Source: a virus (Duplodnaviria > Heunggongvirae > Uroviricota > Caudoviricetes). Taken from it: a stretch of DNA of 52,958 nt. The stretch's first letter is position 1; each line of letters starts with the position of its first letter. Both the position numbers and the translations under genes were made by a program. The notes beneath the pieces are model-generated. The model was not told where the DNA came from, made no database searches, and worked only from the letters and a program-made list of their open reading frames with translations. Shown here in pieces: positions 7,653 through 26,374 of the stretch. The DNA lies in the IMG/VR virus record IMGVR_UViG_2541047912_000003; one strand, 5' to 3'.

Positions 7653-8351
7653 TTACTGCGAAAGTTTGTTAATGGAAAGGAAGCCGCCAAAGTTGCCGAC
7701 GTTATTGCGGAACTTACAGCCACTCAGGCATTTGCTGCATTTATCCTTCGTGATATCGGACGTCGGCTGGTCATATTCATCCGCGACCGCCGGACCGCTA
7801 TAACCGCACTCATCACCGCGATAGGTCCAGGTGCAGGTGTTGGCCAGCATGATGCGCCCCGGAAAAACAGCACCATCCGTTTCCGTCGGCGTGGACAGTA
7901 CAAAAGAGGCACTCACCGCGCTCAGTTCGCTGCACTGCTCAATGCGCCAGCGGCTGATCACCTCCTGCTCCGGATCGGCGTCACTGTTTCCGTTGACGAA
8001 GTTCACCGCATCCAGAAAACGGGCGTAAACCTTACGCCTGACCACCGTTCCGCCGACCAGACTCTGCAGATCTTCCGCCATCCCGGTGACCATACCGTAC
8101 AGGTTAGAAACCGTCAGCGTGGGGCGCGTACTGGTGCCTTTGCCATTCAGTTCAAAACCACTCCCCTGAATGGGATACGGCTGATACTGTCGCCCCTGCC
8201 AGGTGACCGGCTCACCTTTTTCGTTCTGCTCATTACAGAAAAAATAACGTTCTCCACCGACCTCTGTCAGATCGATTTCCCAGAGCACCACGCTGGCCGA
8301 CTGCTCCGCACGGGTGCATTCATTCAGTGTTTCCTGCCGGATATCCTGCAT
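7653..8351 (-). CDS. L: minor tail protein L
   Basis: 232 aa, matches lambda gpL including the C-terminal Cys cluster (CSKCLSGC). Confidence 0.95.
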   Translation of the reverse strand: MQDIRQETLNECTRAEQSASVVLWEIDLTEVGGERYFFCNEQNEKGEPVTWQGRQYQPYPIQGSGFELNGKGTSTRPTLTVSNLYGMVTGMAEDLQSLVGGTVVRRKVYARFLDAVNFVNGNSDADPEQEVISRWRIEQCSELSAVSASFVLSTPTETDGAVFPGRIMLANTCTWTYRGDECGYSGPAVADEYDQPTSDITKDKCSKCLSGCKFRNNVGNFGGFLSINKLSQ

Positions 8352-8680
8352 CAGATCACCACCTGTTCAAACTCTGCGCTGAACTCAACACGCAGCATAC
8401 TGACCCGCGACGACCATTTTGCGCAGGTCACCTTTATCTGCCGCCACTCATAAGGCGGCGTCCACAGAAAGGCTTTCCAGCCCCCGTGCTCAGCCAGAAA
8501 CGACTCCAGCGCCGTGGCCTCCCAACGGGGAACAGAAAGCGTCACGCTGTACGTTTTCAGGTCGGCATTCAGCCCGGCAGGCGCTCGCTGGGAATAGCCA
8601 TCACCAAAGCGCACTTTCCTGACGGAAGGGGCTGAAGCCACATCCATACCGGGTTTCACTTTCCAGCGGAAGGTCTTCAT
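8351..8680 (-). CDS. M: minor tail protein M
   Basis: 109 aa, matches lambda gpM; stop/start overlap with L. Confidence 0.95.
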   Translation of the reverse strand: MKTFRWKVKPGMDVASAPSVRKVRFGDGYSQRAPAGLNADLKTYSVTLSVPRWEATALESFLAEHGGWKAFLWTPPYEWRQIKVTCAKWSSRVSMLRVEFSAEFEQVVI

Positions 8681-11244
8681 CGTCCACCTCCGGAGAACAG
8701 ACCACCATCGCGCATCTGTGCCTGAATTTCATCACGGGCACCCTTGCGGGCCATGTCATACACTGCCTTCAGCATCTGTGGACCTGGCAGACCATTCGTA
8801 CCGTCGTTCTGAATCACCACGTTGTTGTTCTGCTCAAATCTGATACCCTCTGAACGCCGCATTTGCGCCGGACCTCCGGTGCCACCGACATAACCACCGG
8901 TGGCATAGCCGCGCATCAGCCGGTAAAGATTTCCTACGCCAATCCGGCTGGTTGCCTCCTTCGTGAAGACAAATTCACCACGGTGAACAATCCCCGCTGG
9001 CTCATATTTGCCGCCGGTTCCCGTAAATCCTCCGGTCGCAAAATGGAATTTCGCCGCAGCTGCCTGAATGGCTGTAACGCCTGACGCTGATGCGCCGCCG
9101 CCAATGGCGCTGCCGATACTTCCGACAATCCCCACCATTGCCTGCTTAAGCAGAATTTCTGTCATCATGGACAGCACGGAACGGGTGAAGCTGCGCCAGT
9201 TCTGCTCACTGCCGGTCAGCATCGCCGCCATATTCTGTGCAATGCCATCAAAGGTCTGCGTGGCAGCACTTTTTACCTGCGACATACTGTCCGTGGCGCT
9301 CTCTTCCCACTCACTCCAGCCGGACTTCAGGCCTGCCATCCAGCTCCCGCGAAGCTGGTCTTCAGCCGCCCAGGTCTTTTTCTGCTCTGACATGACGTTA
9401 TTCAGCGCCAGAGAATTATCGCCATACTGTTCCTTCAGGCGCTGTTCCGTGGCTTCCCGCGCTGCCTGCCGGTCAGTCAGCCCCCGGTTTTTTGCATCAA
9501 TGGCGGCCCGTTTTGCCCGTTGCTGCTGTGCGAATTTATCCGCCTGCTGTGCCAGCGCGTTCAGGTGCTCCTGATAGGTGACCTTGTCGCCAAGTGCAGC
9601 CAGCTGGCGTTTGTACTCCAGCGTCTCATCTTTATGCGCCAGCAGGGATTTCTCCTGTGCAGACAGCTGGCGACGTTGCGCCGCTTCCTCCAGTACCGCG
9701 AACTGACTCTCCGCCTTCCACAAATCCCGGCGCTGCTGGCTGATTTTCTCATTCGCTCCGGCATGCTTCTCCAGCGTCCGGAGTTCTGCCTGAAGCGTCA
9801 GCAGGGCGGCATGAGCACTGTCTTCCTGACGCTCTCCTGCAGACACCTTCACGCCGGACTGCTTCGGCTTTTTCAGTGTCGCTTCATAGTCCTTTTTCGC
9901 CGCCGCCATCAGCGTGTTGTAATCTGTCTGCAGGATTTTTCCGTCTTTCAGGGCCTTATTCAGTTCTTCCTGACGGGCGGTATATTTCTCCAGCGGCGTC
10001 TGCAGGCGTTCATAAGCCTTCTGCGCCTCTTCGGTATATTTCAGCCGTGATGCCTCAGACTCGGCCCAGTCCTTTGCTGCCATCTCTCTGGCCTTTTCAA
10101 GATCGGCCTGCAACGTGGCGGCTGAAAGCCCAAGTTGCGCATTCGCTCTGTCCTCCCATGCTCCCCGGAGATTAGCAAGAAATGCGGATGTTTTACCGCG
10201 CCGGTGGCTCCGGCTCTGATACCACTGCCATTTTTTGTCCGCCTCATCAAAAGCCTTTTCTGCTTTCTCCAGCATTTCCTGGGCTGTGTCCGGGCGACCA
10301 ATATCCAGCACCGAATCCCACATGGATTTGAATGCCCGCGCAGTCCTGTCTGCCCAGGTCTCCAGCGTGCCCATGTTCTCTTTCAGGCGGCGGGTCTGGT
10401 CATCAAACCCTTTCGTTGCGGCCTCGTTCGCTGCCTGCAATGCCCCGGCCTCATCGCCGGAACGCTGCAACTGAGCAACATACGCAATTTGCTCCGCCGT
10501 CACGTTATGGAACTGGCGCGCCATCGCCGTCAGCCCCGACGTCGGGTCAGTGGTCAGCTTCCCGAAGGCTTCAGCGACCTTGTCCACCTCCACGCCGGAT
10601 GCAGAGGAGAAACGCGCCACACTCTGGCTGATGGACGCAATCTGAGCCTCACCGCTTACCCCCGCCTTAACCAGTGCACTGAGTGACTCGCTGGTCTGGT
10701 TAAACGTCAGCCCTGCCGCCTGCCCGGCTCTGGACAGGACCAGCATACGATCTGCCGTCAGACCCGACTGATTACCGGAAAGGACCAGCGTTTTGTTGAA
10801 ATCGGACAGGGTTGAGTTACCCTGATACCAGGCATACGCCAGCGCACCGGTCGCCACCGCCAGCGAGGTGGCCCCGACCATCGGCAGGGTGATCGCACCG
10901 GCAAGCCCCCGGAACATGGGGATCATCCCGCCGAAGGAGTCCTTAACCTGACCACCCTGTTGCAGCAGGATCAGCCACGGACTTTGCCCGCCTGCAAGCT
11001 GCGTGGCCACGTCGGTGAACTGTGCAGGCAGCATACGCATGGCAGCTTTATACTGCCCGACGGAAATCCCCGCTTTCTGTGCAGCCAGCGCCTGCCGGTT
11101 CATCGACTGTTCAACGACTGCCGCTGTTTTTTTCGCATCAGTTTCCGTACCGGAAAAATGACGCCTGACTCTGGCCATCTGCTCGTCAAATCTGGCCGCA
11201 TCCAGACTTAAATCAACGACCAGATCGCCTACCGGTTCAGCCAT
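8677..11244 (-). CDS. H: tail tape measure protein H
   Basis: 855 aa, coiled-coil rich, Gly-rich C-terminus; size and position match lambda gpH. Confidence 0.95.
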   Translation of the reverse strand: MAEPVGDLVVDLSLDAARFDEQMARVRRHFSGTETDAKKTAAVVEQSMNRQALAAQKAGISVGQYKAAMRMLPAQFTDVATQLAGGQSPWLILLQQGGQVKDSFGGMIPMFRGLAGAITLPMVGATSLAVATGALAYAWYQGNSTLSDFNKTLVLSGNQSGLTADRMLVLSRAGQAAGLTFNQTSESLSALVKAGVSGEAQIASISQSVARFSSASGVEVDKVAEAFGKLTTDPTSGLTAMARQFHNVTAEQIAYVAQLQRSGDEAGALQAANEAATKGFDDQTRRLKENMGTLETWADRTARAFKSMWDSVLDIGRPDTAQEMLEKAEKAFDEADKKWQWYQSRSHRRGKTSAFLANLRGAWEDRANAQLGLSAATLQADLEKAREMAAKDWAESEASRLKYTEEAQKAYERLQTPLEKYTARQEELNKALKDGKILQTDYNTLMAAAKKDYEATLKKPKQSGVKVSAGERQEDSAHAALLTLQAELRTLEKHAGANEKISQQRRDLWKAESQFAVLEEAAQRRQLSAQEKSLLAHKDETLEYKRQLAALGDKVTYQEHLNALAQQADKFAQQQRAKRAAIDAKNRGLTDRQAAREATEQRLKEQYGDNSLALNNVMSEQKKTWAAEDQLRGSWMAGLKSGWSEWEESATDSMSQVKSAATQTFDGIAQNMAAMLTGSEQNWRSFTRSVLSMMTEILLKQAMVGIVGSIGSAIGGGASASGVTAIQAAAAKFHFATGGFTGTGGKYEPAGIVHRGEFVFTKEATSRIGVGNLYRLMRGYATGGYVGGTGGPAQMRRSEGIRFEQNNNVVIQNDGTNGLPGPQMLKAVYDMARKGARDEIQAQMRDGGLFSGGGR

Positions 11245-14622: not shown

Positions 14623-15412
14623 TTACGCCAGTTGTACAGACACGAACTCATCAGGGTCAGCCAGCAGCATCAGCGGTGCTGACTGAATCATGGTGAACTC
14701 ACGCGCCGGGTCGCCGGTGGTCACCCAGTTTTTCGGGTAACGGGCAGAGGCGTTAATGCCTTCGCGCTGTGCGTCCGCATCCTGAATGCAACCATAGGTG
14801 CGCAGACCGCGTGCCTGAGTGTTCCCCAGCACCATCGTGTTGTCCGGCAGGAAGTTCTTTTTGACGCCGTTTTCCACGTACTGTCCGGAATACACGACGA
14901 TGGCCACATCGCCATACATTCCCTTATAAGACACCGCTTTGCCCAGGTCTTTTACCGCTGTCTCCAGCTCGGAATGAGAGCCGCGACGGGTATCCAGCTT
15001 CTCCTTGACGGCTTTGAAGGAACGGAACAGCGCCCAGCCTTTCGGATCAAACACGATGATATTCACCACACCGCTGGCGTTCAGCGCGTAGGCTTCGATA
15101 TCGTCGGTCGGGTCATACGTGGACTTGTCACGCTTGCTCCACTCCGTGCCGCCGGACTGCGTGATGTTATTCGCCTCACTGCGGCCCATATCCACCTCAA
15201 CCGGATCGAAGGCTTCACCGGTCATGGTATATTTGCCCTTAAGCACGGCAGAAACTGCCTGCATCTCTTCGACCTGGGCAATCGCCAGATTTTCATCCAG
15301 CATATTCTGCCGAATAATACGGCGACGACGGTAAGCCGGGTCAGCCAGGTTCTGCGGATCTTCATCCGGCAGGCGACGCAGGGTCATCTGCGGATTCACC
15401 TCATGCTTGGGT
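14623..15412 (-). pseudogene. E: major capsid protein E, C-terminal ~260 codons, separated from its 5' part by a 10.7-kb insertion
   Basis: Translation PKHEVNPQMTLRRLPDEDPQ...FVSVQLA is collinear with lambda gpE from about residue 83 to the end; preceded in frame by a stop at the insertion junction. Confidence 0.9.
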
Positions 15413-15413
15413 T
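15404..15413. repeat. left copy of 10-bp direct repeat tgcttgggtt (putative att core, attL side)
   Basis: Identical 10-mer at 26130-26139; both lie exactly at the break in E. Confidence 0.7.
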
Positions 15414-15620
15414 ACATGAGTCAAATAGAAAAAAGATACTTGATTTAACAGAGATTTATTTTATAAATGAGAGGGTGCAGAATTACGTAGCAATACATGC
15501 TGCAATACATGGTTAGGGAAAAGCCTTCTTGGCATCGTACAAAAAACAAACCGAATTTTTTCTAACACAGCCAAGTAAAGCCTCCTTCACTTAATTAGTT
15601 AAATTATAAAGGAATATTCA

Positions 15621-16763
15621 ATGAAAATTTTTCTTGCTCATGCAAAAGAAGATGAAACGATAACTGAAGAAATCTATGAAAGGCTAAAAAGTGGAGGATA
15701 TTCCCCTTGGATGGATGTAAAAGATATACCCGCTGGCGTAAACTGGGATTATGAAATCCAAAAAAACTTCGCTAATTCAAACTTGATAATCCTTATCCTT
15801 AGCAAAGTGAGCACTCAGAAAAATGGTTATATTCGCCGCGAAATAAATGACGCCATTGATAAACTAAAGTATTACAAACCAGATGATGTGTTCGTGATAC
15901 CATTACTTATTGATGATTGCGAAGTACCCGCCTACATATCAAGCAAGCTCCAATTCATTGATTTTAAGAGAAATGATGGTTGGGACATTTTATCTAGATC
16001 TTTAAGATTAGCAGCATCGCAACAAAAACTTGAAATATCTCAAGGTATCACTTATGGGCCATTTAACTTTAGCAGCGAGGTTTTCAAGGAAGAATATAAC
16101 AAGATCCCAGGGCATGAAATTGAAATAGCATATCCAAGAATTGAAAGCCATACATTACCGAAATCAGCAAAACTCATTAGTGATTACTTTTCAGGAAAAG
16201 CGGCTTTACATATTTTTTCTGAACGCACATCACTATGGCCAGGAACACCATATTGGGATGAAGAATATAAACACACTTACACTAGTTCCTATAATGAAAG
16301 TTATAACATCTCATACTGTAACGAAAATGTTATGAGCATCCTTCATTCCGTACATTGGTATGGTGCGGGAGCAGCACACCCTAACAGTCATTTTGAAACT
16401 AGTAATTTCGTAATAACCAAGGATGACTACGCATACAAATTTAGTTTATGGGATGTATTTACCGAAGGGAAAGAGCAAGAAGCGATTAATAAGATAAAAC
16501 AAAAAATAATCTCTGAATCAGCTCGTGAATTTTGGGAGAAAACTGGTGAAAAACCAAGTGAGGACGACATTAGTACGTTTGCAACGGGTATCATGGATAG
16601 TAACTTAGACTCGTTCACAATAAATAGTGATGGATTTAGATTCCATTTTGCACCTTACGAAATTCATGCATATGCTTTTGGTTCTTGGGAATTCTTTATC
16701 TCATTCTTTGAAGTAATAGACTTCCTTAAAGAGGATGGAATTTACTCTCTAATAAGGAGTTAA
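15621..16763 (+). CDS. TIR-domain protein (380 aa) with ~250-aa C-terminal domain of unknown function; candidate defence/abortive-infection effector
   Basis: N-terminal ~120 aa (KIFLAHAKEDE, ILILSKVS, candidate catalytic Glu in RREINDA, VIPLLIDDCEVP) fit the bacterial TIR fold; AT-rich codon usage unlike flanking DNA; strong RBS aaggaa; C-terminal WYGAGAAHP motif loosely resembles the GGAH motif of DUF3298/RsiV-type domains (unverified). Confidence 0.7.
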   Translation: MKIFLAHAKEDETITEEIYERLKSGGYSPWMDVKDIPAGVNWDYEIQKNFANSNLIILILSKVSTQKNGYIRREINDAIDKLKYYKPDDVFVIPLLIDDCEVPAYISSKLQFIDFKRNDGWDILSRSLRLAASQQKLEISQGITYGPFNFSSEVFKEEYNKIPGHEIEIAYPRIESHTLPKSAKLISDYFSGKAALHIFSERTSLWPGTPYWDEEYKHTYTSSYNESYNISYCNENVMSILHSVHWYGAGAAHPNSHFETSNFVITKDDYAYKFSLWDVFTEGKEQEAINKIKQKIISESAREFWEKTGEKPSEDDISTFATGIMDSNLDSFTINSDGFRFHFAPYEIHAYAFGSWEFFISFFEVIDFLKEDGIYSLIRS

Positions 16764-17129
16764 CATTTCAATAAGCCTGAAATTTAATCAGGCTTATATA
16801 CATTTCCTTATGATTAAATTATTGCTGTTCTTAAGCAAAGATGCAGCCAGAAGTAATTCCCCCTCAAGCTTGCTTGCACACATAAAGAACTGACACAAAA
16901 CTCTGCTGTAAAGTTGTCTAGCCACACAGCAAAAAACATATGAAACTTTGTTATTCGCAAACTGCTTGCTCTATATTCCACCATCAAGGCGCATAAAGCA
17001 ATTGCAATGGCGCAGAAGTAGGCCATAACTATGAAGTGAAGCTAGCGGCGCGTTATTGGCCGCTTCTGAATAGGGCCTGATTCAACTCAGGGATAAGATT
17101 TTTTCTGGTGATAGACCGCGACGGATGGC

Positions 17130-17330
17130 AACAAAACCAGAGAAAGGAAACGACAGAGGCCAAAAAGCCTGTTTTTAGCACCTGTCGTTTCCTTTCTTTT
17201 TAGGGGGTGTTTTTAATAAAAACATTAAGTTACGGCGAAGAAGAACGGAAACGCCTTAAACAGGAAAATTTTCACAAATAGCAAAAAACTGCGCGCCTGA
17301 CGCCCCGTAGCCTGTCAGATCGCCGGAAAG
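17130..17330. other. satellite cos site (cosQ-cosN-cosB-like), paralogous to the prophage cos
   Basis: About 200 bp roughly 90% identical to 32340-32540 (aggaaacgacag, cacctgtcgtttcctttc, ttacggcgaagaagaacggaaacgcc blocks) in the same orientation; cosN-equivalent 12-mer at 17295-17306 (gcctgacgcccc) differs from the prophage's. Confidence 0.75.
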
Positions 17331-17361
17331 GACCCGCCAGCCAGAGCGGGCCCTAATTTCA

Positions 17362-17745
17362 TCAACCAATCAGCTTATAGCGACCATCCCGTGCATTGCG
17401 GCGTACACGCTCAATCTTGAGGCATAGCGCCGCATCTGGCTTTTTTGGGACAGGTACGCGGCAATATTCAGAAGCGCGAGGAATATTATTTATCCAGTCG
17501 ATCACTTCACTTAAATACCAGGCCTTACGCCCTTCCGTAACCTGCACACGCTCCGGGAACTCTCCACTAGCCTCAAGGTTTAGCAGTGTACGCCGACTCA
17601 GGGTTGTAATTTCCATCACCTGATTCATATCAACAAGGCGCTCGCTTAAACACATTTTGTCAGCGATAGCTTTTAATTCCTCTACAGCTGGATTCGGGTA
17701 CATCATTTCGGCAAGTGGCTTAAGGTCATTGTAATCATTCTGCAT
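17362..17745 (-). CDS. HTH protein (127 aa; AlpA/MerR-like winged helix), adjacent to satellite cos; possible packaging-redirection or regulatory protein
   Basis: C-terminal half (EITTLSRRTLLNLEASGEFPERVQVTEGRKAWYLSEVIDWI) resembles AlpA-type HTH and the Nu1 DNA-binding fold; strong RBS; last gene of the capsid operon next to cos. Confidence 0.5.
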   Translation of the reverse strand: MQNDYNDLKPLAEMMYPNPAVEELKAIADKMCLSERLVDMNQVMEITTLSRRTLLNLEASGEFPERVQVTEGRKAWYLSEVIDWINNIPRASEYCRVPVPKKPDAALCLKIERVRRNARDGRYKLIG

Positions 17746-17756
17746 TGTATCCCCCT

Positions 17757-18098
17757 TTACACACGAGCCAGCGGCTGAACAGAAATACCTGAGCCAACAA
17801 ACGCTGCAATCTTTACTGACAGTTCTTTTACAGACTCAGGCCAGTTCAGAGCATCAACATTTAAGACACCTGTCTTATAGACCTGAGCCTGTGTTTTTTT
17901 CGCGGTGTCGATTTGTACAGCGGAAACATAAACCGCTTTACCTACGCTCGAACCATCCCATACCACCAGTGCACCTGTTGCATCTTCCTGCATCAGTGGC
18001 GTAAATGCAGGAATTACCCCTTTATTAGCTGAAAATATCCCCAGCGTAGTCACCAGTGCTTCAGTGCCAGCCATGAGTTCAGTGTAATGAGTAGCCAT
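17757..18098 (-). CDS. head decoration protein (lambda D paralogue) encoded by the satellite
   Basis: 113 aa; shares the PLM...VVWDG...YKTG...WPE pattern with lambda gpD (26430-26762) but is divergent; strong RBS. Confidence 0.7.
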   Translation of the reverse strand: MATHYTELMAGTEALVTTLGIFSANKGVIPAFTPLMQEDATGALVVWDGSSVGKAVYVSAVQIDTAKKTQAQVYKTGVLNVDALNWPESVKELSVKIAAFVGSGISVQPLARV

Positions 18099-18107
18099 TG
18101 CTCCCCC

Positions 18108-19148
18108 TTAGCCAATGCGAACGGTAACAAAACGATTGATGCGGGCCGGTATTGGCTGTGGTGCTGAATGTGTCTGCACATATTCAATAGCCGGATCACC
18201 AGGCACAATATAGTTTTTCGGTGCAAGTTCGGCTTTAGTCAGCCCCATTCGGATTAGCTCCGGATCCTGAATACCGCCATAGGCGACAATCCCCTGAAGA
18301 GCCGTATTGCCAAGCACCATCAAATCAGGATCAAGGAAATGTTTTTCAGTTCCGTCCTCGTCGGTATAACGCCCGCTGTATACAACAATCGCAACATCGC
18401 CCATATACCCTTTAAAACTCACCGAATCACCAAGGTCTTTAAGGGCCGTTTCCAGTTCGGAATTAGAACCACGACGGGTATCCAGAGCCTCTTTTATCGC
18501 TCTGAATGAACGGTATTTCTTCCATACATTACCGCCCATAATGATGATATTAGTGACGCCCTCACTAAATTCTGCGTAGCTCTCAATATCATCATTTGGA
18601 TCAAAAGTTTCTTTATCCTTACCTGACCACTCAGTACCGCCAGACTGAGTGATGATATTTTGTGGTTTTATATTCCAGTCCAGCTCATAACGTTCAATAC
18701 CATCGCCCTCAATGATATTTTTCCCCGTTGTGATTGCCTGAACGGCAAGCCATTCAATACGTGCACGAATAGCTTTAGCCTGATTTACAATCGCCTGTTT
18801 AACTTTAATATTACGCGCTCCAAAAGCATTGTATTGCTCAGGTGATACACCAGCAGGGCGCACAGCTAACTTATTTGGATCAATGCTGCTTTTCGGCTTC
18901 ATATAGCCTGGACGAATTGTTTTTGATTCGTACCCTTCGTCACGTGAAACTTTACTACCTACCATAGGAGAACAAAACGCTGCAATTGGGATATTTGGAT
19001 CGTCGATTGTATCAAGAATAATATCGCGCGATTCAAACATTACCGAACGAGTAAAAAACAAACTGGTAAACAACGCATTTAGTTGTTTTTGTACATCTAC
19101 AGCATTAACCACCTGTACAAGCTGGGTAGGCGAATATAAATCAACCAT
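18108..19148 (-). CDS. major capsid protein (lambda E paralogue) encoded by the satellite
   Basis: C-terminal two thirds about 50% identical to lambda gpE (ITQSGGTEWS, DTRRGSNSELETA, YMGDVAIVVYSG); likely start at MVDLYSPTQ with AGAGGA RBS; the supplied ORF is extended upstream. Confidence 0.8.
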   Translation of the reverse strand: MVDLYSPTQLVQVVNAVDVQKQLNALFTSLFFTRSVMFESRDIILDTIDDPNIPIAAFCSPMVGSKVSRDEGYESKTIRPGYMKPKSSIDPNKLAVRPAGVSPEQYNAFGARNIKVKQAIVNQAKAIRARIEWLAVQAITTGKNIIEGDGIERYELDWNIKPQNIITQSGGTEWSGKDKETFDPNDDIESYAEFSEGVTNIIIMGGNVWKKYRSFRAIKEALDTRRGSNSELETALKDLGDSVSFKGYMGDVAIVVYSGRYTDEDGTEKHFLDPDLMVLGNTALQGIVAYGGIQDPELIRMGLTKAELAPKNYIVPGDPAIEYVQTHSAPQPIPARINRFVTVRIG

Positions 19149-19365
19149 ACGCATCCTCTTTGCATTCATTAAAAATAATTGTGGATATATGCTATCACCG
19201 ATATTTGTCATGCGAATACATGCAACCGAGTGCAATGTTGTATAAAGTTTTGGGATAACAACTCCAGCGCGGATAATTAGTGTTAATATCTTCACTCCCT
19301 TTGGTCGGGATTTATGTAGCATGCCGGAAAATTTATTTTTTTCCGGCCTTTTTTATTGGCAATAT

Positions 19366-19815
19366 TTAAAACGGAATATCATCTCCCCATTGCTCATTAT
19401 CTCCCACTGGTGGATGGCTTCCTTGCTGATCTGCCTGTTGTTTTGCTCTGTTCAGTGCGTCAGTAGCCTGACCCTGTTGACCTTTTTTGCCGCCCGGTCG
19501 CACCGTTCGCGCACTGATTACGCTGTCTGCGATAACCTGCCAGCCCTGCCGCGTTTCACCGTTCTGTCCAGTCCACTGGCTCACCTGCATATTACCCGCC
19601 ACGCTCAGGAGTTCGCCTTTGTGATGCTTTGCCAGCGCGTCGGCTTGTCTGCCAAACGCCAGGACAGATAACCACATCGTCGCCTGACCGTCATCCGACT
19701 GACTGCAGGGCAGTGATACCGCCATACGCGCCAGCGTCATGGGGGTGCCCTTGCTGGTCTGTTTTGTCTGCGGGTCGTCCACCAACCGCCCGTAAACTGA
19801 TATTTGCGCCGTCAT
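19366..19815 (-). CDS. ssb: single-stranded DNA-binding protein
   Basis: 149 aa, OB-fold-like N-terminus, Gly/Gln-rich linker and C-terminal acidic tip DDIPF; RBS present. Confidence 0.85.
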   Translation of the reverse strand: MTAQISVYGRLVDDPQTKQTSKGTPMTLARMAVSLPCSQSDDGQATMWLSVLAFGRQADALAKHHKGELLSVAGNMQVSQWTGQNGETRQGWQVIADSVISARTVRPGGKKGQQGQATDALNRAKQQADQQGSHPPVGDNEQWGDDIPF

Positions 19816-20057
19816 GCTGCCTGCTCTCCGGACTTAATATTGATTGTTGTCACTTCCTCCGCTTCAGCAATCTCCCGTTCGGTCAGAGTGGCAAAGTTTG
19901 CAGCCGCCGTTGTCATGAATGCGCTAATCAGTTCGGGATGTGCTTTCGCGTATCCTTCCCCGGCGTTGCGGTCGATGATTTTTATCGACACCCTTAACCA
20001 GTGTTCCGTCAAATCAAGGGCGTGCGATTGTGATTTTTTTGTGTGCTTCGCTGTCAT
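19812..20057 (-). CDS. hypothetical protein (81 aa), translationally coupled to ssb
   Basis: Stop overlaps the ssb start (ATGA); immediately downstream of the iteron region. Confidence 0.5.
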   Translation of the reverse strand: MTAKHTKKSQSHALDLTEHWLRVSIKIIDRNAGEGYAKAHPELISAFMTTAAANFATLTEREIAEAEEVTTINIKSGEQAA

Positions 20058-20099
20058 AGGCTTTATCTCACAGCAGTAAATTAAAATTTTTGCGTTTTA

Positions 20100-20335
20100 A
20101 CCCTTCACCTGTTCACCTTTTGATATTTTCTCTTTTAATTCATAATGTTAATGGGTGAACAGTTTCACAAAAACTATTCACCAACTGTTCACCACTGTTC
20201 ACCCTTGAAGCTCAATAAACAATCAAAAAGGTGAACAGTGAATAGTTTGGTGAACAGTTCATAAATAACTGTTCACCCTATAATATACTGATATAAAAGA
20301 TATTTATGACAGGGTGAACAGTGGTGAACAGTTAT
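20100..20335. repeat. iteron cluster (about 10 copies of TGTTCACC / GGTGAACAG in both orientations); putative satellite replication origin
   Basis: Motif recurs throughout 20103-20330 in an AT-rich context, immediately downstream of the primase-helicase gene. Confidence 0.75.
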
Positions 20336-20344
20336 TCCATAAGT

Positions 20345-22165
20345 TTAATTTTTGCTATCGTCATTAGTGACCGATACACATGATGGCATCCAGTCTTCTG
20401 ATTCCTCCGTCAGGGTCACGTTTGAACGCAAACCGTGCTTCGTTTTCCGTTTCATATACTCCCTGCCATATTCCGCCATTGCCCCCGGCATATCTTTACC
20501 GAAGCGCGTCAGTGTTACAGGTTTACCAAACCCATGTGCCCTCATATAAGCCAGATAGGCATGATAGAGATACCTGCGTGGGCTGAATGGCACAATTTCA
20601 GCATTACCCACTAACAGGCCATCACACATTACCGATGCCATGAGATAACCGCAGAAGTCCACCAGCGAATCCCCCTCTCGCTTTATCGCCAGTGCTTCTT
20701 CAGATTTCTGCTGCTCATATAACAGGCGTCTGGCTTCGTCCTGATCAGCAAACCTTGTAAGCAGATGACGAATCACTACCGCCAGCTCACCTTCTATTTT
20801 TTCCGCCAGCATCGAATCGCGTTCGTTCTCCGGTACAACTTCCGAAAAATTGAATATCACCCGACGACGTGAGATCCCCCCGCTGCGGTCACTGAATGAC
20901 ATGGCGTTATTGTTAACCGCCAGCACTACTGCCGGAATACGCGTTGAATAGGGGGCTTTGTGTTTCGGGTCAATTGCCACCTTGTCACCGCCTGTAATGG
21001 CCTTAATCCCTGCCCCATCACCAGCGTAGCGGGTCATATCCGGCATGATAATCAGCGAAAAGCCAACCACTAACGCACGTTCCCTTGCATCTTCCAGCGC
21101 CTTCATGCTTGCTGATACTGTATTAGCCTTACCCGCCAGCATGGTGCAAATCTCCGCCATCACACTTTTACCACTTCCCCCCGGCCCTGTTACCTCAATG
21201 AATAACTGCCAGTCGTACCGGTTCGCCAGCACCATGAATAATGCCGCCAGTACGCGATCTGCCTTGCGGTCATTCTCAGCCACCGAACGGCGCAACCACT
21301 TCCAGAAATTCGGCGCATGTGTTGCCAGCGTTTCCCCCTCTGCTGGTGGGCTGAAAGGTAATTCACTGGCAATTAACAACCAGTCGTTTTTGTTATGCTC
21401 CCGAAAATTACCAGTTCTGGTATCAAATACCCCGTTACTGAATCCAATCAGGTTACGGGCTGTATTCCCCATTACAGGCAAACTTAACTTCATGGTATCT
21501 ACCGCCGATTTAATAGCGTTCTGCGAATAGCTGATCTCCGCATCAATGAAAATCTGCGCCATAGCACGCTGTAACTCTTTATCCTGAACCGGCTCCCATA
21601 CAACGCCGTTGTAATGATGAACGGTGTCAGAGTCGGCATTGATTGCCAGTTCGCCGCCGTAATGTGCAAGGAGAACTTCACCGCGCTGGCTGGCCCCCAT
21701 CTGATTCAACGCCAAAGATGAAGCACGCTCGTCATTTTTGCGCTCAGCCTTCTTCACTGGCAGTTCAATCACCAGACTTTCCCCATGCTCCGCTTCAGCT
21801 TTTAGGCCGACAAGGCGCGGAGTCCAGTCTTCAGGCTCTCGATCAACAAAGCTACGGTAACAACGTGCTTCCTTTACGCCTGCAATAGCAAGTAATGTCG
21901 CAACCTTCGTCAGATTTTTCTCTGCAATCTTTCCGGCACGATAAACACGCACATAATGACGGCCTTCATCGATAATTTGCATATCATCCAGGTTTTCCAG
22001 TTGTTCCGTACCCAGAATTACTGGTGGTGTATCATCTGCTGCAATATGCTTACCCGCCCATTCATTCCATTCTTTTGCATGGCTCCAGGCATCACTGCCA
22101 GCAAAAATGATGACTTCTGTCATTTTGTCGCGCGGTTGGTATTTTAAGTTCGGAGCACGTTTCAT
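20345..22165 (-). CDS. replication primase-helicase (P4/PICI-type, P-loop NTPase)
   Basis: 606 aa with Walker A GPGGSGKS and downstream Walker B-like hydrophobic-acidic stretch; GGAGG RBS; adjacent iteron origin. Confidence 0.8.
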   Translation of the reverse strand: MKRAPNLKYQPRDKMTEVIIFAGSDAWSHAKEWNEWAGKHIAADDTPPVILGTEQLENLDDMQIIDEGRHYVRVYRAGKIAEKNLTKVATLLAIAGVKEARCYRSFVDREPEDWTPRLVGLKAEAEHGESLVIELPVKKAERKNDERASSLALNQMGASQRGEVLLAHYGGELAINADSDTVHHYNGVVWEPVQDKELQRAMAQIFIDAEISYSQNAIKSAVDTMKLSLPVMGNTARNLIGFSNGVFDTRTGNFREHNKNDWLLIASELPFSPPAEGETLATHAPNFWKWLRRSVAENDRKADRVLAALFMVLANRYDWQLFIEVTGPGGSGKSVMAEICTMLAGKANTVSASMKALEDARERALVVGFSLIIMPDMTRYAGDGAGIKAITGGDKVAIDPKHKAPYSTRIPAVVLAVNNNAMSFSDRSGGISRRRVIFNFSEVVPENERDSMLAEKIEGELAVVIRHLLTRFADQDEARRLLYEQQKSEEALAIKREGDSLVDFCGYLMASVMCDGLLVGNAEIVPFSPRRYLYHAYLAYMRAHGFGKPVTLTRFGKDMPGAMAEYGREYMKRKTKHGLRSNVTLTEESEDWMPSCVSVTNDDSKN

Positions 22166-22449
22166 TTATTACCTCCGGCAACTAACATTGCCCGAATTTT
22201 GCGGATATAGCCTGCGGCACGCCTCTGATTATCTGTCTTGCAATTTTTTACCAGAATGAAATCTCTTTCGAACTGCTGACGCGGCATAACACATTCAAAA
22301 TCATAACCATCACGCAAATAAGAGACACGGCGATCATCAACCGAAATAATCTTTACCCGATAGCCATAGCTATCTTTGAAAATATCCCCAAGGCTGATTT
22401 TTGAATGAGCTTGACCGCTGGCAATAAAGCCAGAAAATTTATTTTTCAT
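22162..22449 (-). CDS. hypothetical protein (95 aa) in the satellite replication operon
   Basis: RBS GGAGAA; stop overlaps the primase start. Confidence 0.5.
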   Translation of the reverse strand: MKNKFSGFIASGQAHSKISLGDIFKDSYGYRVKIISVDDRRVSYLRDGYDFECVMPRQQFERDFILVKNCKTDNQRRAAGYIRKIRAMLVAGGNK

Positions 22450-22451
22450 TT

Positions 22452-22676
22452 TTATTCTCCGGTATAGCTCTGGTCGTGTATTTTTATAGCTTCATCCAGC
22501 TCTTTGATGACAGGATCAAGTAACGTAATTAACGCTCCAGCTAAATTAGCATCCCGTTCATCGTGTTCCGCATTTGTTGTCCCATCAAGCCAGGTTGATA
22601 AGATTTCTCGCATATTTTTGCCACAAACGAGCGCGTTTTCAGCATGTGTCAGCACTTTAAAATAAAGATCATTCAT
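22452..22676 (-). CDS. hypothetical protein (74 aa) in the satellite replication operon
   Basis: RBS GGAGG 7 nt upstream; tightly packed with neighbours. Confidence 0.5.
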   Translation of the reverse strand: MNDLYFKVLTHAENALVCGKNMREILSTWLDGTTNAEHDERDANLAGALITLLDPVIKELDEAIKIHDQSYTGE

Positions 22677-23034
22677 GGCACACCTCCTGACGAATACGGG
22701 CGGCGAATATCATCACGCAGCCAGTTGGGGATTGCTGGCGGGCTTCCTGTTCGCTGGTGGCCTCGATGGTAATCACGCGCGGTTGTGTCGTACTCAGGGC
22801 GATAAAACGCCAGAGGAAATTGTTTTCACATTTCTGAATAAACAGCGTGTTTTCTTCCCGCCCTTTCCAGAAAGCCGCAGTATAGCCCATCTCCTTAACC
22901 ATCTTGCGGGCATCAACCAGCGTGTCAGCGGCTACATGTACCGTAGTTGCTCCATCTGCTATGCGATCGCGATGTAGCGCCAGAAAGATGTATATAAATT
23001 TAGGGTGAGTTTGGGTATGCTGTGTTCCAGCCAT
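22669..23034 (-). CDS. hypothetical protein (121 aa), first gene of the minus-strand satellite operon
   Basis: Internal Met of the 304-aa supplied ORF with GAGG RBS; the upstream extension is Ser/Arg-rich and overlaps a convincing plus-strand gene. Confidence 0.5.
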   Translation of the reverse strand: MAGTQHTQTHPKFIYIFLALHRDRIADGATTVHVAADTLVDARKMVKEMGYTAAFWKGREENTLFIQKCENNFLWRFIALSTTQPRVITIEATSEQEARQQSPTGCVMIFAARIRQEVCHE

Positions 23035-23039
23035 AATCG

Positions 23040-23240
23040 TTACCTCGTTTAACGGTTTGGTTAGAAGCCCGGTTAGTGTTCGCGCACTGCCGGGTTTCGT
23101 CGTTTTTATGAATCGATCATTGTGAGATACATAGCGACCATAATGTGAGATATACATTATATTGTGGTGATATACATTGCAAGTGTTTTTATATCTCACT
23201 TTTGTGTATAGTGATATACACATAACAAATTGGTGATTAA
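23040..23240. promoter_or_regulatory. divergent promoter/operator region of the satellite with repeated TGAGATA(T)ACAT-like motifs
   Basis: Several copies of gtgagatacat / gtgagatatacat / gtgatatacat between divergent genes at 23034 (minus) and 23243 (plus). Confidence 0.5.
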
Positions 23241-23242
23241 CT

Positions 23243-23545
23243 ATGTCTGTATACAAAAATGCAAAATCGCAAATGACAACGATCAGGGTTCCCCACGATG
23301 TTATGGAGGGCATGGAATCCGTAAAACTGGACGGCGAAAGCAACGCCGGATTCATAGTAACCGCCATGCGCGGTGAGATCGCCCGCCGCCAGGCAGAAGG
23401 AAGCGGAGAAAATCCCCTCGTGTCTTCACTGGATGCCTTAGCTAAGGTCGAACAAATCGGCATCAAGGCAGCGGAGGAAATCGGGCAACTCGTAGCCGTC
23501 GCTCGTGAAGAACTCCAGCGGCGTAAAGCCAAAGAATCTGAATAA
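23243..23545 (+). CDS. hypothetical regulator (100 aa), divergently transcribed from the satellite replication operon
   Basis: Charged, helix-rich protein adjacent to the operator repeats; position expected for a satellite repressor; no family recognised. Confidence 0.5.
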   Translation: MSVYKNAKSQMTTIRVPHDVMEGMESVKLDGESNAGFIVTAMRGEIARRQAEGSGENPLVSSLDALAKVEQIGIKAAEEIGQLVAVAREELQRRKAKESE

Positions 23546-23895
23546 TTAGTATCAGCGCCGTGATGTGAGTAACTACGGCGCATTGCTATGTAAATACTGG
23601 CAATAAACAGAAAAGGTAGTTCTACTCCGAATAATTTTATCTGACACTACTCCTAAACTAACATGCGCTTATCTTACAGGATATAAATATAAATCCATAA
23701 AATCACGATTAAATAAAGTCGCTCCAAATATAAACCACACCCAACGCTTAACAAGATAGCAACAAACAGATAAATAACTTGCAGAAATATTTATCGCAAG
23801 GATTATCATTATTAATGACAAATCACTTTACCAAGTCATTCCCCTCTCTTATCATAAAGAGAAAGTAATAAATAAGTTAAGGGAGTTAGAATGCT

Positions 23896-24432
23896 ATGAA
23901 TCTAAAAAAAATAGCCACAAACACAAAAAACAAGATAACAGAAACATTCAATAAACTTATATTAGAGGCATCTAAAACCCCCACACAAGATGAAATTAAA
24001 ATACTTGAGAGAAGGAGTAAGAAGTTTAATTACTCCTTTTTCTCATACGCAGTCACAGGAGCTATAATAGTTTTTTGCTCTCAACCATTAATAAAATACG
24101 CAAACCCAATACTTATTTTATTGAGTGGCCTGCTATTGTCTCTCACCATTATCCACCTCAGAATTCTTTATATTTCACAAACAAATAGATCATGGACAAA
24201 AAATAAAAAAACTGCATATATTATTTTAATTTTATCTGTATGTTTCCTAGCGTCAACATTGACGTTGCTATATCAGGCTTACGATAATAACATCACACAC
24301 AAATTGTACTGTAAAAATATACAACAACTTATTGAAAAAAGGATAGAAACAGAAAAAAACATCAGCATATTCAGTGGAATGCAATGCACCCCGGTATATG
24401 ATTACTCTTTATTTGGATTTAATCTCTTATAA
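23896..24432 (+). CDS. AT-rich integral membrane protein (178 aa, about 3-4 TM segments); cargo gene of the satellite
   Basis: Hydrophobic segments (AVTGAIIVFCSQPLI, ILILLSGLLLSLTIIHL, AYIILILSVCFLASTLTLL); very AT-rich relative to neighbours. Confidence 0.55.
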   Translation: MNLKKIATNTKNKITETFNKLILEASKTPTQDEIKILERRSKKFNYSFFSYAVTGAIIVFCSQPLIKYANPILILLSGLLLSLTIIHLRILYISQTNRSWTKNKKTAYIILILSVCFLASTLTLLYQAYDNNITHKLYCKNIQQLIEKRIETEKNISIFSGMQCTPVYDYSLFGFNLL

Positions 24433-24440
24433 AGAATGTT

Positions 24441-24476
24441 ATTACTGATTTGAGTACAAATTCTCAAATCAGTAAT
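24441..24476. terminator. perfect 14-bp inverted repeat hairpin between convergent genes (likely bidirectional terminator)
   Basis: attactgatttgag / ctcaaatcagtaat arms with 8-nt loop, followed by a T-rich tract. Confidence 0.6.
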
Positions 24477-24501
24477 TCATAATATTTTATTCTGAGATAA
24501 T

Positions 24502-24738
24502 TTAAACTACCCACTCACCTCGAATCCATGCCTGCACTTCTGAAAGACGATATGCAACAGCAGTGGAACCAATCTTGATCCGCTTAGGAAATTTTCCTTC
24601 CTTCTCCAGCTTCCAGCGTGTGCTGTTCGCAAGAGTGGTTAGCTCCCGACATTCTTTCTCACGGATCATTCGGTCAATGTTAGGAATGTACTCCAGACCC
24701 TTTTTATCAACAATTGCCATTTTTTTCATGTTAACCAA
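24502..24738 (-). CDS. alpA: AlpA-family excisionase/transcriptional regulator
   Basis: 78 aa, HTH (ELTTLANSTRWKLEKEGKFPKRIKIGSTAVAYRLSEVQAWI) typical of AlpA/Xis; immediately downstream of int. Confidence 0.8.
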   Translation of the reverse strand: MVNMKKMAIVDKKGLEYIPNIDRMIREKECRELTTLANSTRWKLEKEGKFPKRIKIGSTAVAYRLSEVQAWIRGEWVV

Positions 24739-25966
24739 CCTTTTGTTTGAGGATCGTCACTTTTGAATCAGCACCTGCGATGCTATTGAGATATGTAGTC
24801 CAGAGTTCCAGAGCATCCAGTTTTTTAGCCATAAACTTACTCCGGTTGTAAACACCTGCCACGCCAGGTAGCGCATGGCCTAACAGTTGTTCTACTACAT
24901 AAAATTCAACACCGAGATCACTTAGATGAGTAGATAGCGTTCTTCTAAGGTCGTGTAGTGACCATTGTTTTTCATGGCCCAAACGTTTACCGATTTTCCC
25001 CCCAATCTTGCTTACGCTTTCTCTAATTCGCAGACTTCCCAGCACATAACCAGTATGTTTTGTCTCTTCGTGAACATCCGTTACCCACTGTCGTAGAATT
25101 TCAGGTACTGGTCTGACGATTTCAACACCAGTTTTTGAGTGATCTTTTGGTACAGTCCAAACCCAACTTTCGAGATCCCATTCGCTCCATTCTGATAATC
25201 GGGCTTCACTCATTCGACATCCAAATACTGTACAAAGCACAAACATTTTTCGCGTGTATTCAGACATTAGTTTTAAATCAGGCTCGACAAAAATTGCCTT
25301 CCAGAGCTGGCCGAGTTCGGCTTCATCCAGAACCCGATCCCGCTTACCTGCAATCTGCCCCACATCACTCATGCGCAAATCCTTTAAAGCATCACACGTC
25401 GCGTACTGGCGTACCCGACAAAAACGAAGAGCTAATTTAGTGTCAGAAAAAACATACGCCGCCATAACTGGTGCATTACGTTTAATTCGGTCAAAACAGT
25501 CCAGCCATTCATATAGGTGAGTGTCATTTACGGGCAAATGACCGATATAGGGAAAGATATGCTTTCGAAATCTGCCAAGCGTTACAGCATGAGTTTTACG
25601 ACGCACCTTACAGTAATTTTCATACCAGTAATTTAGTGCATCCTCCACTGTGACCGGCTTTAAGCGTTCTTCAGCCTGAATCTTAATCTGGATACGCGGA
25701 TCACGTTTGTCAGCCAACCAACCACGGCACTCGTCGCGCTTTTCCCTTGCCTGTTTGAGTGACATATCAGGATATTTACCCAACGTTAGCCAGACCGGAG
25801 CAGCCCGGCCACCTGCTAACCTGTAGAAGAAAACAAAGCTCACAGCCCCTTTAGTACTCACACGAATAGAAAGCCCCTTTCCATCAGCAATGGTGATCTG
25901 CTTTTCTCTGGGTTTCCCCAGATATCCTTTAAGCGCTTTGTCGCTCAGTTTGTTCTCGCCAGCCAT
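24731..25966 (-). CDS. int: tyrosine integrase (P4-type) of the satellite
   Basis: N-terminal arm-binding region, catalytic region with HDLRRT and HxLGH-like (LLGHA) motifs and terminal Tyr (VYNRSKF); start taken at MAGENKLSD. Confidence 0.85.
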   Translation of the reverse strand: MAGENKLSDKALKGYLGKPREKQITIADGKGLSIRVSTKGAVSFVFFYRLAGGRAAPVWLTLGKYPDMSLKQAREKRDECRGWLADKRDPRIQIKIQAEERLKPVTVEDALNYWYENYCKVRRKTHAVTLGRFRKHIFPYIGHLPVNDTHLYEWLDCFDRIKRNAPVMAAYVFSDTKLALRFCRVRQYATCDALKDLRMSDVGQIAGKRDRVLDEAELGQLWKAIFVEPDLKLMSEYTRKMFVLCTVFGCRMSEARLSEWSEWDLESWVWTVPKDHSKTGVEIVRPVPEILRQWVTDVHEETKHTGYVLGSLRIRESVSKIGGKIGKRLGHEKQWSLHDLRRTLSTHLSDLGVEFYVVEQLLGHALPGVAGVYNRSKFMAKKLDALELWTTYLNSIAGADSKVTILKQKVG

Positions 25967-26098
25967 TTTTAGCCCCAAAAAGCAATACAAGCTGCAATAC
26001 AGAGATGATTGCAACACACAGATAACGAGGAAAATTCAGTGAAAGCGCCAGATAAATTTATTCTTTATTATCAAAAGATTAAGTGTAAAAACCAGCAA

Positions 26099-26374
26099 CT
26101 ACACGAAAGCCTCAGAAAGCCATGCTAAGTGCTTGGGTTTGACATAACCCGGCGTAAATTCAGAGGTGGAGCCGCCACGGGATCGGATAACCTCACCGGA
26201 AACAATCGGCGAAACGTACAGCGCCATGTTTACCAGTCCCGGAATTTGTGAGAGATAGACTTTTTCCGTGGTGAAAGGATAGGTTTCACGGAAAAACAGG
26301 CGCAGAAACAGCGGATCGAACTTAAAGTGATGCTGGGTCGATGCCAGTAATTCTGCAGTTGTATATACAGACAT
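26099..26374 (-). pseudogene. E: major capsid protein E, N-terminal 82 codons, fused in frame to 9 codons of satellite DNA
   Basis: MSVYTTAELLASTQHHFKFDPLFLRLFFRETYPFTTEKVYLSQIPGLVNMALYVSPIVSGEVIRSRGGSTSEFTPGYVKPKH matches the lambda gpE N-terminus, then diverges (LAWLSEAFV, stop) at the junction. Confidence 0.9.
26130..26139. repeat. right copy of 10-bp direct repeat tgcttgggtt (putative att core, attR side)
   Basis: Identical to 15404-15413; encodes the PKH codons present at both E fragment ends. Confidence 0.7.

Follow-up and report, generated by a model that had tools for sequence, protein, structure and literature searches.

A TIR-DUF3298 fusion protein with an RsiV-type module, carried by a helper-embedded satellite, as a candidate single-gene anti-phage system

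The coupling of TIR effectors to diverse sensors is central to immunity in bacteria, plants, and animals, and a large share of the questions about these proteins concerns what each sensor recognizes. SpbK, encoded by ICEBs1 of Bacillus subtilis, is a TIR NADase that needs head-to-tail TIR assemblies, is triggered when the phage portal protein YonE binds it directly, and makes cyclic ADP-ribose (cADPR) in addition to ADP-ribose (ADPR) (PMC12847820). In SPARTA, the E77A mutation in TIR-APAZ abolishes NADase activity (PMC9097488). Wang et al. (2024) sorted Escherichia coli TIR proteins into 64 clusters and reported 12 of 32 tested systems as active (PMC11350192). Here, we analyzed a gene at positions 15621–16763 of a 52,958-nucleotide stretch of DNA from a virus of the Caudoviricetes (IMG/VR record IMGVR_UViG_2541047912_000003), hereafter the window. 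It encodes an N-terminal TIR domain followed by a C-terminal PdaC (DUF4163)-DUF3298 module, and we put at roughly 60% the probability that it is a single-protein anti-phage gene whose sensor binds a phage cue, after which clustering of the TIR domains would lead to NAD+ depletion and abortive infection. The gene and its parts are as follows.

15621–16763, plus strand: TIR-PdaC-DUF3298 open reading frame (ORF), ATG start, 380 amino acids plus stop, identical to WP_000688840.1
15610–15613, plus strand: Shine-Dalgarno-like AGGA, 7 nucleotides before the ATG, read off the sequence
15627–15986, plus strand: TIR domain, residues 3–122, Pfam TIR_2 (PF13676)
15840–15842, plus strand: codon of Glu74, predicted catalytic, invariant in 60 homologs and aligned with E77 of the Crt TIR-APAZ protein
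16038–16760, plus strand: PdaC (DUF4163)-DUF3298 module, residues ~140–380, predicted sensor
16356–16385, plus strand: invariant loop W246–N255 (WYGAGAAHPN), equivalent of the RsiV lysozyme-contact loop E163–T171
16653–16682, plus strand: loop P345–G354 (PYEIHAYAFG), with Y346 and Y351 invariant, equivalent of RsiV Y255–G263

A preliminary description of this DNA, made from its letters alone, had proposed the ORF, a ribosome-binding site, a TIR domain, and a candidate catalytic Glu near residue 74. The ORF and the motifs quoted for it are all in place (KIFLAHAKEDE, residues 2–12; RREINDA, residues 72–78, with E74; VIPLLIDDCEVP, residues 92–103; WYGAGAAHP, residues 246–254), and the AGGA provides the ribosome-binding site. 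WP_000688840.1 is annotated as "TIR domain-containing protein". The absence of a TIR domain from profile searches or structure prediction had been named as grounds for giving up the proposal; instead, the Pfam TIR_2 profile matched residues 3–122 with 76.7 bits (cut-off, 28; E = 2.8e-21), far beyond chance, and the predicted structure has the flavodoxin-like alpha/beta fold of TIR domains. Glu74 is unchanged in all 60 aligned homologs, at identities as low as 21%. When the profile built from these 60 homologs was used to find the nearest solved structures, the closest TIR relative was TIR-APAZ of SPARTA (E~1e-11, residues 2–130), with Glu74 paired to Glu77, the residue that is essential in that protein. 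Among PADLOC models, Aga_TIR scored best with 61.8 bits over residues 2–118 only, while ThsB models reached ~20 bits or less, and the SAVED_TIR model matched the TIR part only (residues 2–82). As aligned here, the nearest solved and PADLOC relatives of this TIR are NAD+-depleting effector TIRs, and the domain is predicted to destroy NAD+ via Glu74.

The C-terminal part had been described as a novel domain with a motif loosely recalling the GGAH motif of DUF3298/RsiV-type domains. The Pfam DUF3298 profile matches residues 278–362 with 42.8 bits (cut-off, 24.1). The match to PdaC/DUF4163 (residues 166–256) is sub-threshold in the protein of the window (16.4 bits versus 29.1); this family, PF13739, is present in more distant TIR-fused homologs, and the predicted fold spans both lobes. 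A Foldseek comparison, as the preliminary description had suggested, placed RsiV/3CYG-type structures first: the top four were 3CYG, RsiV with lysozyme (5JEN), BF2082 (3S5T), and PA4972 (4E72), and the deacetylase SpPgdA was also in the list. In the structure model, the module has the two-lobed 3CYG/RsiV fold; in structure matching, the model scored 18.0 with 3CYG, 17.0 with 5JEN, 16.8 with 3S5T, and 16.4 with 4E72. Because these four structures are the ones that Hastie et al. name as RsiV relatives (PMC5014341), the GGAH remark was right and the label of a novel domain was not: the C-terminus is a recognizable PdaC/DUF4163-DUF3298 module of the RsiV/3CYG fold, and we rejected a novel C-terminal fold on the basis of the DUF3298 profile, the Foldseek search, and the structure matches.

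We detected no signal peptide or transmembrane (TM) segment in the protein. The highest 19-residue hydropathy value is 1.27 and TIR strand A starts directly at the N-terminus, so the protein is predicted to be cytoplasmic. To our knowledge, the members of the PdaC/DUF3298 fold described so far are secreted, lipoproteins, or membrane-anchored. The unusual point is thus the predicted topology, in which a fold of extracellular type lies in the cytoplasm and its N-terminus is occupied by a TIR domain.

Within the C-terminal half, Y247, G248, G250, A252, H253, N255, Y346, and Y351 are invariant among the 60 homologs. In a profile alignment to RsiV, whose sequence was validated against 17 residue numbers of the contact table in PMC5014341, these residues fall in the RsiV loops E163–T171 and Y255–G263, in which the lysozyme contacts include S169, Y255, P259, and Y261 (PMC5014341). 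Six residues of the GAAHPN loop are absent from RsiV, where the alignment has a 6-residue gap, and the contact loop is therefore remodeled.

The family is broad. A word-indexed search gave 131 clusters (90% identity) that share the ~380-residue TIR_2-DUF3298 layout, with sources in Enterobacterales, Burkholderia, Pseudomonas, Xanthomonas, Collimonas, Azonexus, Sphingomonas, and many metagenomes; the family spans Proteobacteria, including soil, plant, and water bacteria. A query with the module alone matched nearly exclusively TIR fusions. An exhaustive HMMER search over 1.84 billion representatives returned 189 proteins at E≤1e-30, and 96 of the best 150 of these 189 module relatives have a TIR domain, most of the others being fragments or secreted forms (all 150 were searched with TIR profiles, and 10 relatives that lacked a TIR or were of unusual length were scanned with Pfam). 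The module also stands behind an HNH endonuclease domain in four cytoplasmic proteins (P0279, P0289, P0294, and P0312) and behind DUF4062 in P0216; in P0188, a beta-helix extension follows the TIR domain and the module. Sensor-effector immune proteins typically show this pattern, in which enzymatic N-termini are apparently exchanged while the module stays constant. The HNH-PdaC-DUF3298 genes (locus L016, 7001–7999; locus L015, 7001–8005) appear to form a sister family, as yet unnamed, made up of candidate defense genes. A tblastn search found no close relatives in GenBank phages; in IMG/VR, 14 viral contigs carry full-length relatives.

The genomic settings of the relatives vary. Among 18 diverse loci, we found no recurrent family of neighboring ORFs except in groups of three, mostly closely related loci, and the three small recurring families that were checked were uninformative or lineage-specific. 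Prophage homologs lie between the replication and packaging modules in Burkholderia and Xanthomonas. Other homologs lie in TrbL/TrfA or MobA elements resembling integrative and conjugative elements (ICEs), adjoin AbiTii, accompany paired reverse transcriptases and an integrase, or neighbor an AAA_23/SMC ATPase. Of the HNH-DUF3298 genes, that of P0279 lies in a defense island, flanked by N6_N4 and Eco57I-like methyltransferase genes with DpnII-MboI genes on one side and by GmrSD, NERD, and SIR2_2 plus DUF87 genes on the other, and that of P0289 neighbors NYN, DUF2971, and a second TIR gene. In Yersinia enterocolitica, an identical protein (P0015; gene at 8001–9146 of loci L003, L004, and L005) occurs in three chromosomal contexts, namely a TrbL/TrfA element, a site with two reverse-transcriptase genes and an integrase, and a site with an AlpA gene. 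These loci share ~170–190 bp upstream of the gene, including a small ORF that ends 3 bp before the ATG. Since this upstream sequence is kept in three different contexts, the comparison suggests a small mobile cassette made up of the gene and a leader of its own.

In the window, the gene lies in a satellite inserted in an E. coli prophage, and the features of this carrier are as follows.

15414–26139, minus strand: helper-embedded phage-inducible chromosomal island (PICI), 10,726 bp, with integrase (int), AlpA-like, Icd-like, primase, single-stranded DNA-binding protein, capsid, decoration, and helix-turn-helix (HTH) genes, all on the minus strand
15404–15413: 10-bp att block TGCTTGGGTT at the integrase-distal junction
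26130–26139: second copy of the 10-bp att block TGCTTGGGTT, at the integrase-proximal junction
14623–15411, minus strand: C-terminal fragment of the lambda-E-like major capsid gene of the prophage, split by the satellite
26129–26374, minus strand: N-terminal fragment of the same capsid gene
15432–16929: variable cargo cassette with only the TIR gene inside; homology to sister satellites ends at 15431 and resumes at 16930/16949
23896–24432, plus strand: second variable slot, between a YlcI-like gene (23243–23545) and an AlpA-like gene (24502–24729)

In silico removal of the 10,726 bp between the att copies restored an intact lambda-E-like capsid ORF of 341 amino acids, and the satellite genes are co-oriented with the late operon of the prophage. 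A carrier of this kind is known: 11capE (Eco567.11capE) is a PICI of ~11 kb that is integrated, at an identity block of 10 bp, in the capsid gene E of lambdoid type (PMC10111431). The satellite of the window resembles it in the capsid-E insertion, the 10-bp identity block, the late-gene co-orientation, and a capsid gene of its own; accordingly, the carrier is of a known type, and we rejected the idea that a satellite in a capsid gene is a new phenomenon, as the helper-embedded PICI is already published (PMC10111431). The variable cassette at the end of the element is an addition to that description, in the text of which neither "TIR" nor "cargo" occurs and "defense" appears once, in the reference list. 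The preliminary description had placed the gene next to attL. It does lie near a junction, 207 bp from the boundary of satellite and prophage, and this junction is the left one as the window is numbered; being integrase-distal, it would be attR by the lambda convention.

The claim that the gene occupies a satellite cargo slot was supported by comparison with two sister satellites, from which the cassette limits were drawn. Between 15431, where the homology to the sisters breaks off, and 16930, where it begins again, lies a replaceable cassette of 1.5 kb that contains nothing but the TIR gene; as had been proposed, the gene forms a single gene unit, convergent with the minus-strand satellite genes. 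The 600 bp downstream of the ORF contain only spurious short ORFs and no partner gene. The foreign, AT-rich composition noted earlier was evident from a GC content of 35.5% (30% at third codon positions), compared with 44.5% for the rest of the satellite and 57% for the flanking prophage. In the same slot, one sister has an Mrr_cat nuclease gene and the other encodes a 310-amino acid protein without a family match, and the second variable slot of one sister (L013) holds PD-T7-1 (E = 1e-124), a validated defense gene. These contents support the idea of a cargo hotspot for this satellite family and bring defense cargo into the picture of helper-embedded PICIs, with at least two variable slots for defense-type genes in these satellites. 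The second slot of the window encodes a hydrophobic protein of 178 amino acids, without any above-threshold family match, which could be further cargo or a defense candidate.

A 2-kb query comprising the gene and its flanks was found at 99.5–100% identity in 16 of 5,426 complete E. coli genomes, in all of which the annotated neighbors are a capsid-gene fragment and the satellite HTH gene; host sources of isolates with the protein include human, dog, and poultry. A segment of the satellite backbone (the 3' end of the HTH gene and the adjacent spacer) occurs in 3,187 of the 5,426 (~59%). The window is identical to none of the inspected genomes. It is collinear with AR_0013 (L002) at ~98% over 10270–32550 and diverges elsewhere; the collinear host element of AR_0013, a lambdoid prophage of DLP12-like type, lies at tRNA-Arg and carries insertion sequence and group II intron insertions. 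We also observed an 11-mer, GCTGCAATACA, near both satellite ends (within 15491–15512 and 25991–26001) and tandem repeats of GCAATACATG at the left end. These repeats may be arm-type sites of the integrase, or they may correspond to the "doubled DNA motif" that only helper-embedded PICIs are reported to have.

The preliminary description had named the gene as a candidate for TIR-based abortive infection. The genomic context and the swapping of N-terminal domains strengthen this candidacy; the role itself stays conditional, and we found no experiment on the TIR-PdaC-DUF3298 family in the literature. We infer the NADase activity, its activation by oligomerization, the sensor role, and the anti-phage phenotype by analogy and from the comparisons above. 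In the proposed sequence of events, the cytoplasmic PdaC-DUF3298 module would bind an infection-derived ligand in the conserved saddle that the loops WYGAGAAHPN and PYxxxxYAxG make up; binding would gather the TIR domains into the head-to-tail assemblies that TIR NADases require; Glu74 would then cleave NAD(P)+, and NAD+ would fall. Through this depletion, the infected cell would be arrested or killed ahead of the maturation of the competing phage, and the abortive infection would shield the clonal population and hence the satellite and its helper prophage.

Several observations weigh against this reading. Twenty of the 32 E. coli TIR systems tested by Wang et al. were inactive (PMC11350192). 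None of the active ones is described with DUF3298, and none of TIR-I to TIR-IX with DUF3298 or PdaC, and the TIR-DUF3298 cluster may be among the negatives or may never have been cloned. The model of the protein has a predicted template modeling score (pTM) of 0.64, so that the geometry between the domains is uncertain. The preliminary description had spoken of a native promoter; a simple sigma-70 scan revealed no promoter between the satellite junction and the ATG. The satellite may be decaying, since its primase gene (window ~20345–22165, minus strand) is annotated as a pseudogene with an internal stop in IAI39 and AR_0013; should the window share this stop, its satellite copy may be unable to replicate autonomously. 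Finally, the loop motifs also occur in secreted lipoproteins with DUF3298 and are ≥90% conserved across the 150 closest module relatives, so that the saddle motifs may serve the structure of the fold and not a particular ligand. MPT64 shares the domain composition and yet does not bind lysozyme (PMC5014341). Given this, the gap in RsiV, and the spread of the motifs in lipoproteins, the two loops appear to mark a generic functional or structural site of the fold, from which lysozyme binding does not follow.

Several other explanations were considered. The module could be a general monitor of envelope or peptidoglycan damage whose ligand is a muropeptide, a peptidoglycan precursor, or a cytoplasmic muralytic enzyme rather than a phage-specific protein. 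The role of PdaC as a peptidoglycan deacetylase and the presence of SpPgdA in the Foldseek list point in this direction, as do saddle residues that are invariant to ~21% identity and common to extracytoplasmic relatives, which fits a conserved ligand; moreover, RsiV holds lysozyme in its peptidoglycan-binding cleft (PMC5014341). In a Xanthomonas prophage (locus L011, 8001–11223; also L026 and L028), a TIR-DUF3298 homolog lies 160 bp upstream of an endolysin gene on the same strand (identified by phrog_90, E = 6e-57), which is followed by an Rz spanin gene. This position is suggestive because the best-known relative of the sensor fold is a lysozyme receptor; yet it is seen in one lineage only, and the side of the lysis cassette is a common site for added prophage genes. 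In addition, MPT64 counts against lysozyme binding as a property of these domains, and the RsiV binding mode is not transferable because RsiV is without the invariant GGAH loop. We consider a general damage monitor unlikely. A narrower proposal, that the cytoplasmic module is a receptor drawn from the lysozyme-receptor fold, senses phage muralytic enzymes before lysis or peptidoglycan fragments from a wall breach, and drives TIR, HNH, or DUF4062 effectors, is somewhat less probable still; a wall-related cue is an attractive minority hypothesis, weakly supported by the role of the fold elsewhere and by the one prophage lineage with an endolysin gene downstream. If it is true, the module would be a sensor class new to bacterial immunity and a parallel to peptidoglycan sensing in animals.

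The TIR domain could alternatively be a Thoeris ThsB-type signal generator, making a messenger such as a cADPR isomer or a His-ADPR-type molecule for an effector encoded elsewhere, with no killing by NAD+ depletion. Signal production is common among bacterial TIRs. SpbK makes cADPR too (PMC12847820), and there are weak ThsB-type matches (PADLOC ThsB, 20.4 bits; NCBIfam ThcB4, 16.4 bits; Pfam ThsB_TIR, 13.8 bits, under the cut-off of 21.2). However, the TIR scores far better against effector-type TIRs, its interchange with HNH nucleases argues for an effector position, the 18 diverse loci show no conserved neighbor, and an unlinked effector would be lost on transfer because the gene moves as a single-gene cassette of 1.5 kb. 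Together, these points make a signal generator doubtful. We regard as very unlikely a toxin that serves the satellite, by addiction or by action against the helper or sibling satellites rather than against unrelated phages. The gene does lie at the extreme end of a helper-embedded PICI, convergent with late-transcribed satellite genes, so that late read-through from the helper would be antisense to it and its expression could be coupled to helper induction; but close homologs are also found away from satellites, on ICE-like elements and in true prophages and chromosomal islands, no antitoxin-like partner turned up among the neighbors in the 18 loci, and such a role overlaps with defense instead of excluding it. 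Less credible than any of these is a virulence factor of the TcpC/TcpB type directed at animal Toll-like receptor (TLR) signaling, with an MPT64-like module for host targeting. It would suit the occurrence of the protein in some E. coli isolates from humans, dogs, and poultry, and MPT64 is reported to be a secreted mycobacterial effector that binds host membranes. Nevertheless, the protein lacks a signal peptide or other secretion signal, members of the family are widely spread among soil, plant, and water bacteria such as Burkholderia, Xanthomonas, Sphingomonas, Collimonas, and Azonexus, homologs sit in prophages and defense islands, and the HNH-nuclease versions would make no sense as TLR mimics.

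Thus, a single-protein anti-phage gene is the reading that we favor. We know of no previous link of the DUF4163/DUF3298 fold to immunity, and the only characterized member known to us is RsiV, a lysozyme receptor. Literature searches found no publication that pairs DUF3298, DUF4163, PdaC, MPT64, or RsiV with TIR or phage defense, and none that cites the accession WP_000688840. The family would bring to immunity a sensor fold that is new to it, moved to the cytoplasm and joined to at least three N-terminal enzymatic domains. It is compact (380 amino acids, one gene), broad, and cloneable from E. coli, so that its trigger could be found quickly by means of escaper phages; a wall-related ligand would reveal a new cue of infection.

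Comparison with known systems places the protein apart from those with defined partners. The preliminary description recognized no Thoeris, STING, SAVED, or Argonaute partner and proposed a check against PADLOC; profiles and neighbor clustering agree, and PADLOC-DB 2.0.0 and NCBIfam 20.0 contain no model that matches the full length, all matches being confined to the TIR region and far below family cut-offs. It does not qualify as Thoeris, with ThsB_TIR under its cut-off, no effector gene in the cassette, and no recurrent neighbor in the 18 loci; as an effector of CBASS, Pycsar, or type III CRISPR, with no SAVED, STING, or CARF domain and no cyclase in the surroundings; or as SPARTA or another short prokaryotic Argonaute (pAgo) system, with DUF3298 at the C-terminus and no Argonaute gene in the surroundings within the window. 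SPARTA has the closest solved TIR, with the glutamates aligned (E74/E77), and oligomerization activates that TIR as an NAD(P)+-depleting effector; SPARTA differs in sensing target DNA with a guide RNA, whereas sensing by PdaC-DUF3298 is proposed here, and the protein of the window is without APAZ. RsiV is alike in fold (5JEN, 3CYG, 3S5T, and 4E72), with ~15% sequence identity and without the GGAH-type loop, and the negative result for MPT64 indicates that lysozyme binding is not general to this fold. The extracytoplasmic domain of RsiV is membrane-anchored and coupled to sigma-V by regulated proteolysis, whereas the module of the window is predicted to be cytoplasmic and is fused to TIR; with a TIR domain at the N-terminus, no TM segment, and no sigma factor gene nearby in the window, the protein is not an anti-sigma factor of the RsiV type.

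The remaining systems are closer in organization. TIR-NLR of P4 satellites is cargo of a satellite hotspot, as is the gene of the window, but has STAND and TPR domains (Rousset et al. 2022, PMC9122126). TIR-I to TIR-IX are TIR proteins of E. coli that protect against phages by sensing single phage proteins, and several act as single-gene systems (PMC11350192). That paper describes the single-protein systems TIR-V and TIR-IX as having superimposable C-termini and differing N-termini; their layout, on which the paper makes no statement, thus seems to be the reverse of the one here, where the TIR is N-terminal. SpbK is alike in combining one gene, a mobile element, a TIR domain, and abortive infection, and we have adopted it as the working model for the TIR-PdaC-DUF3298 protein.

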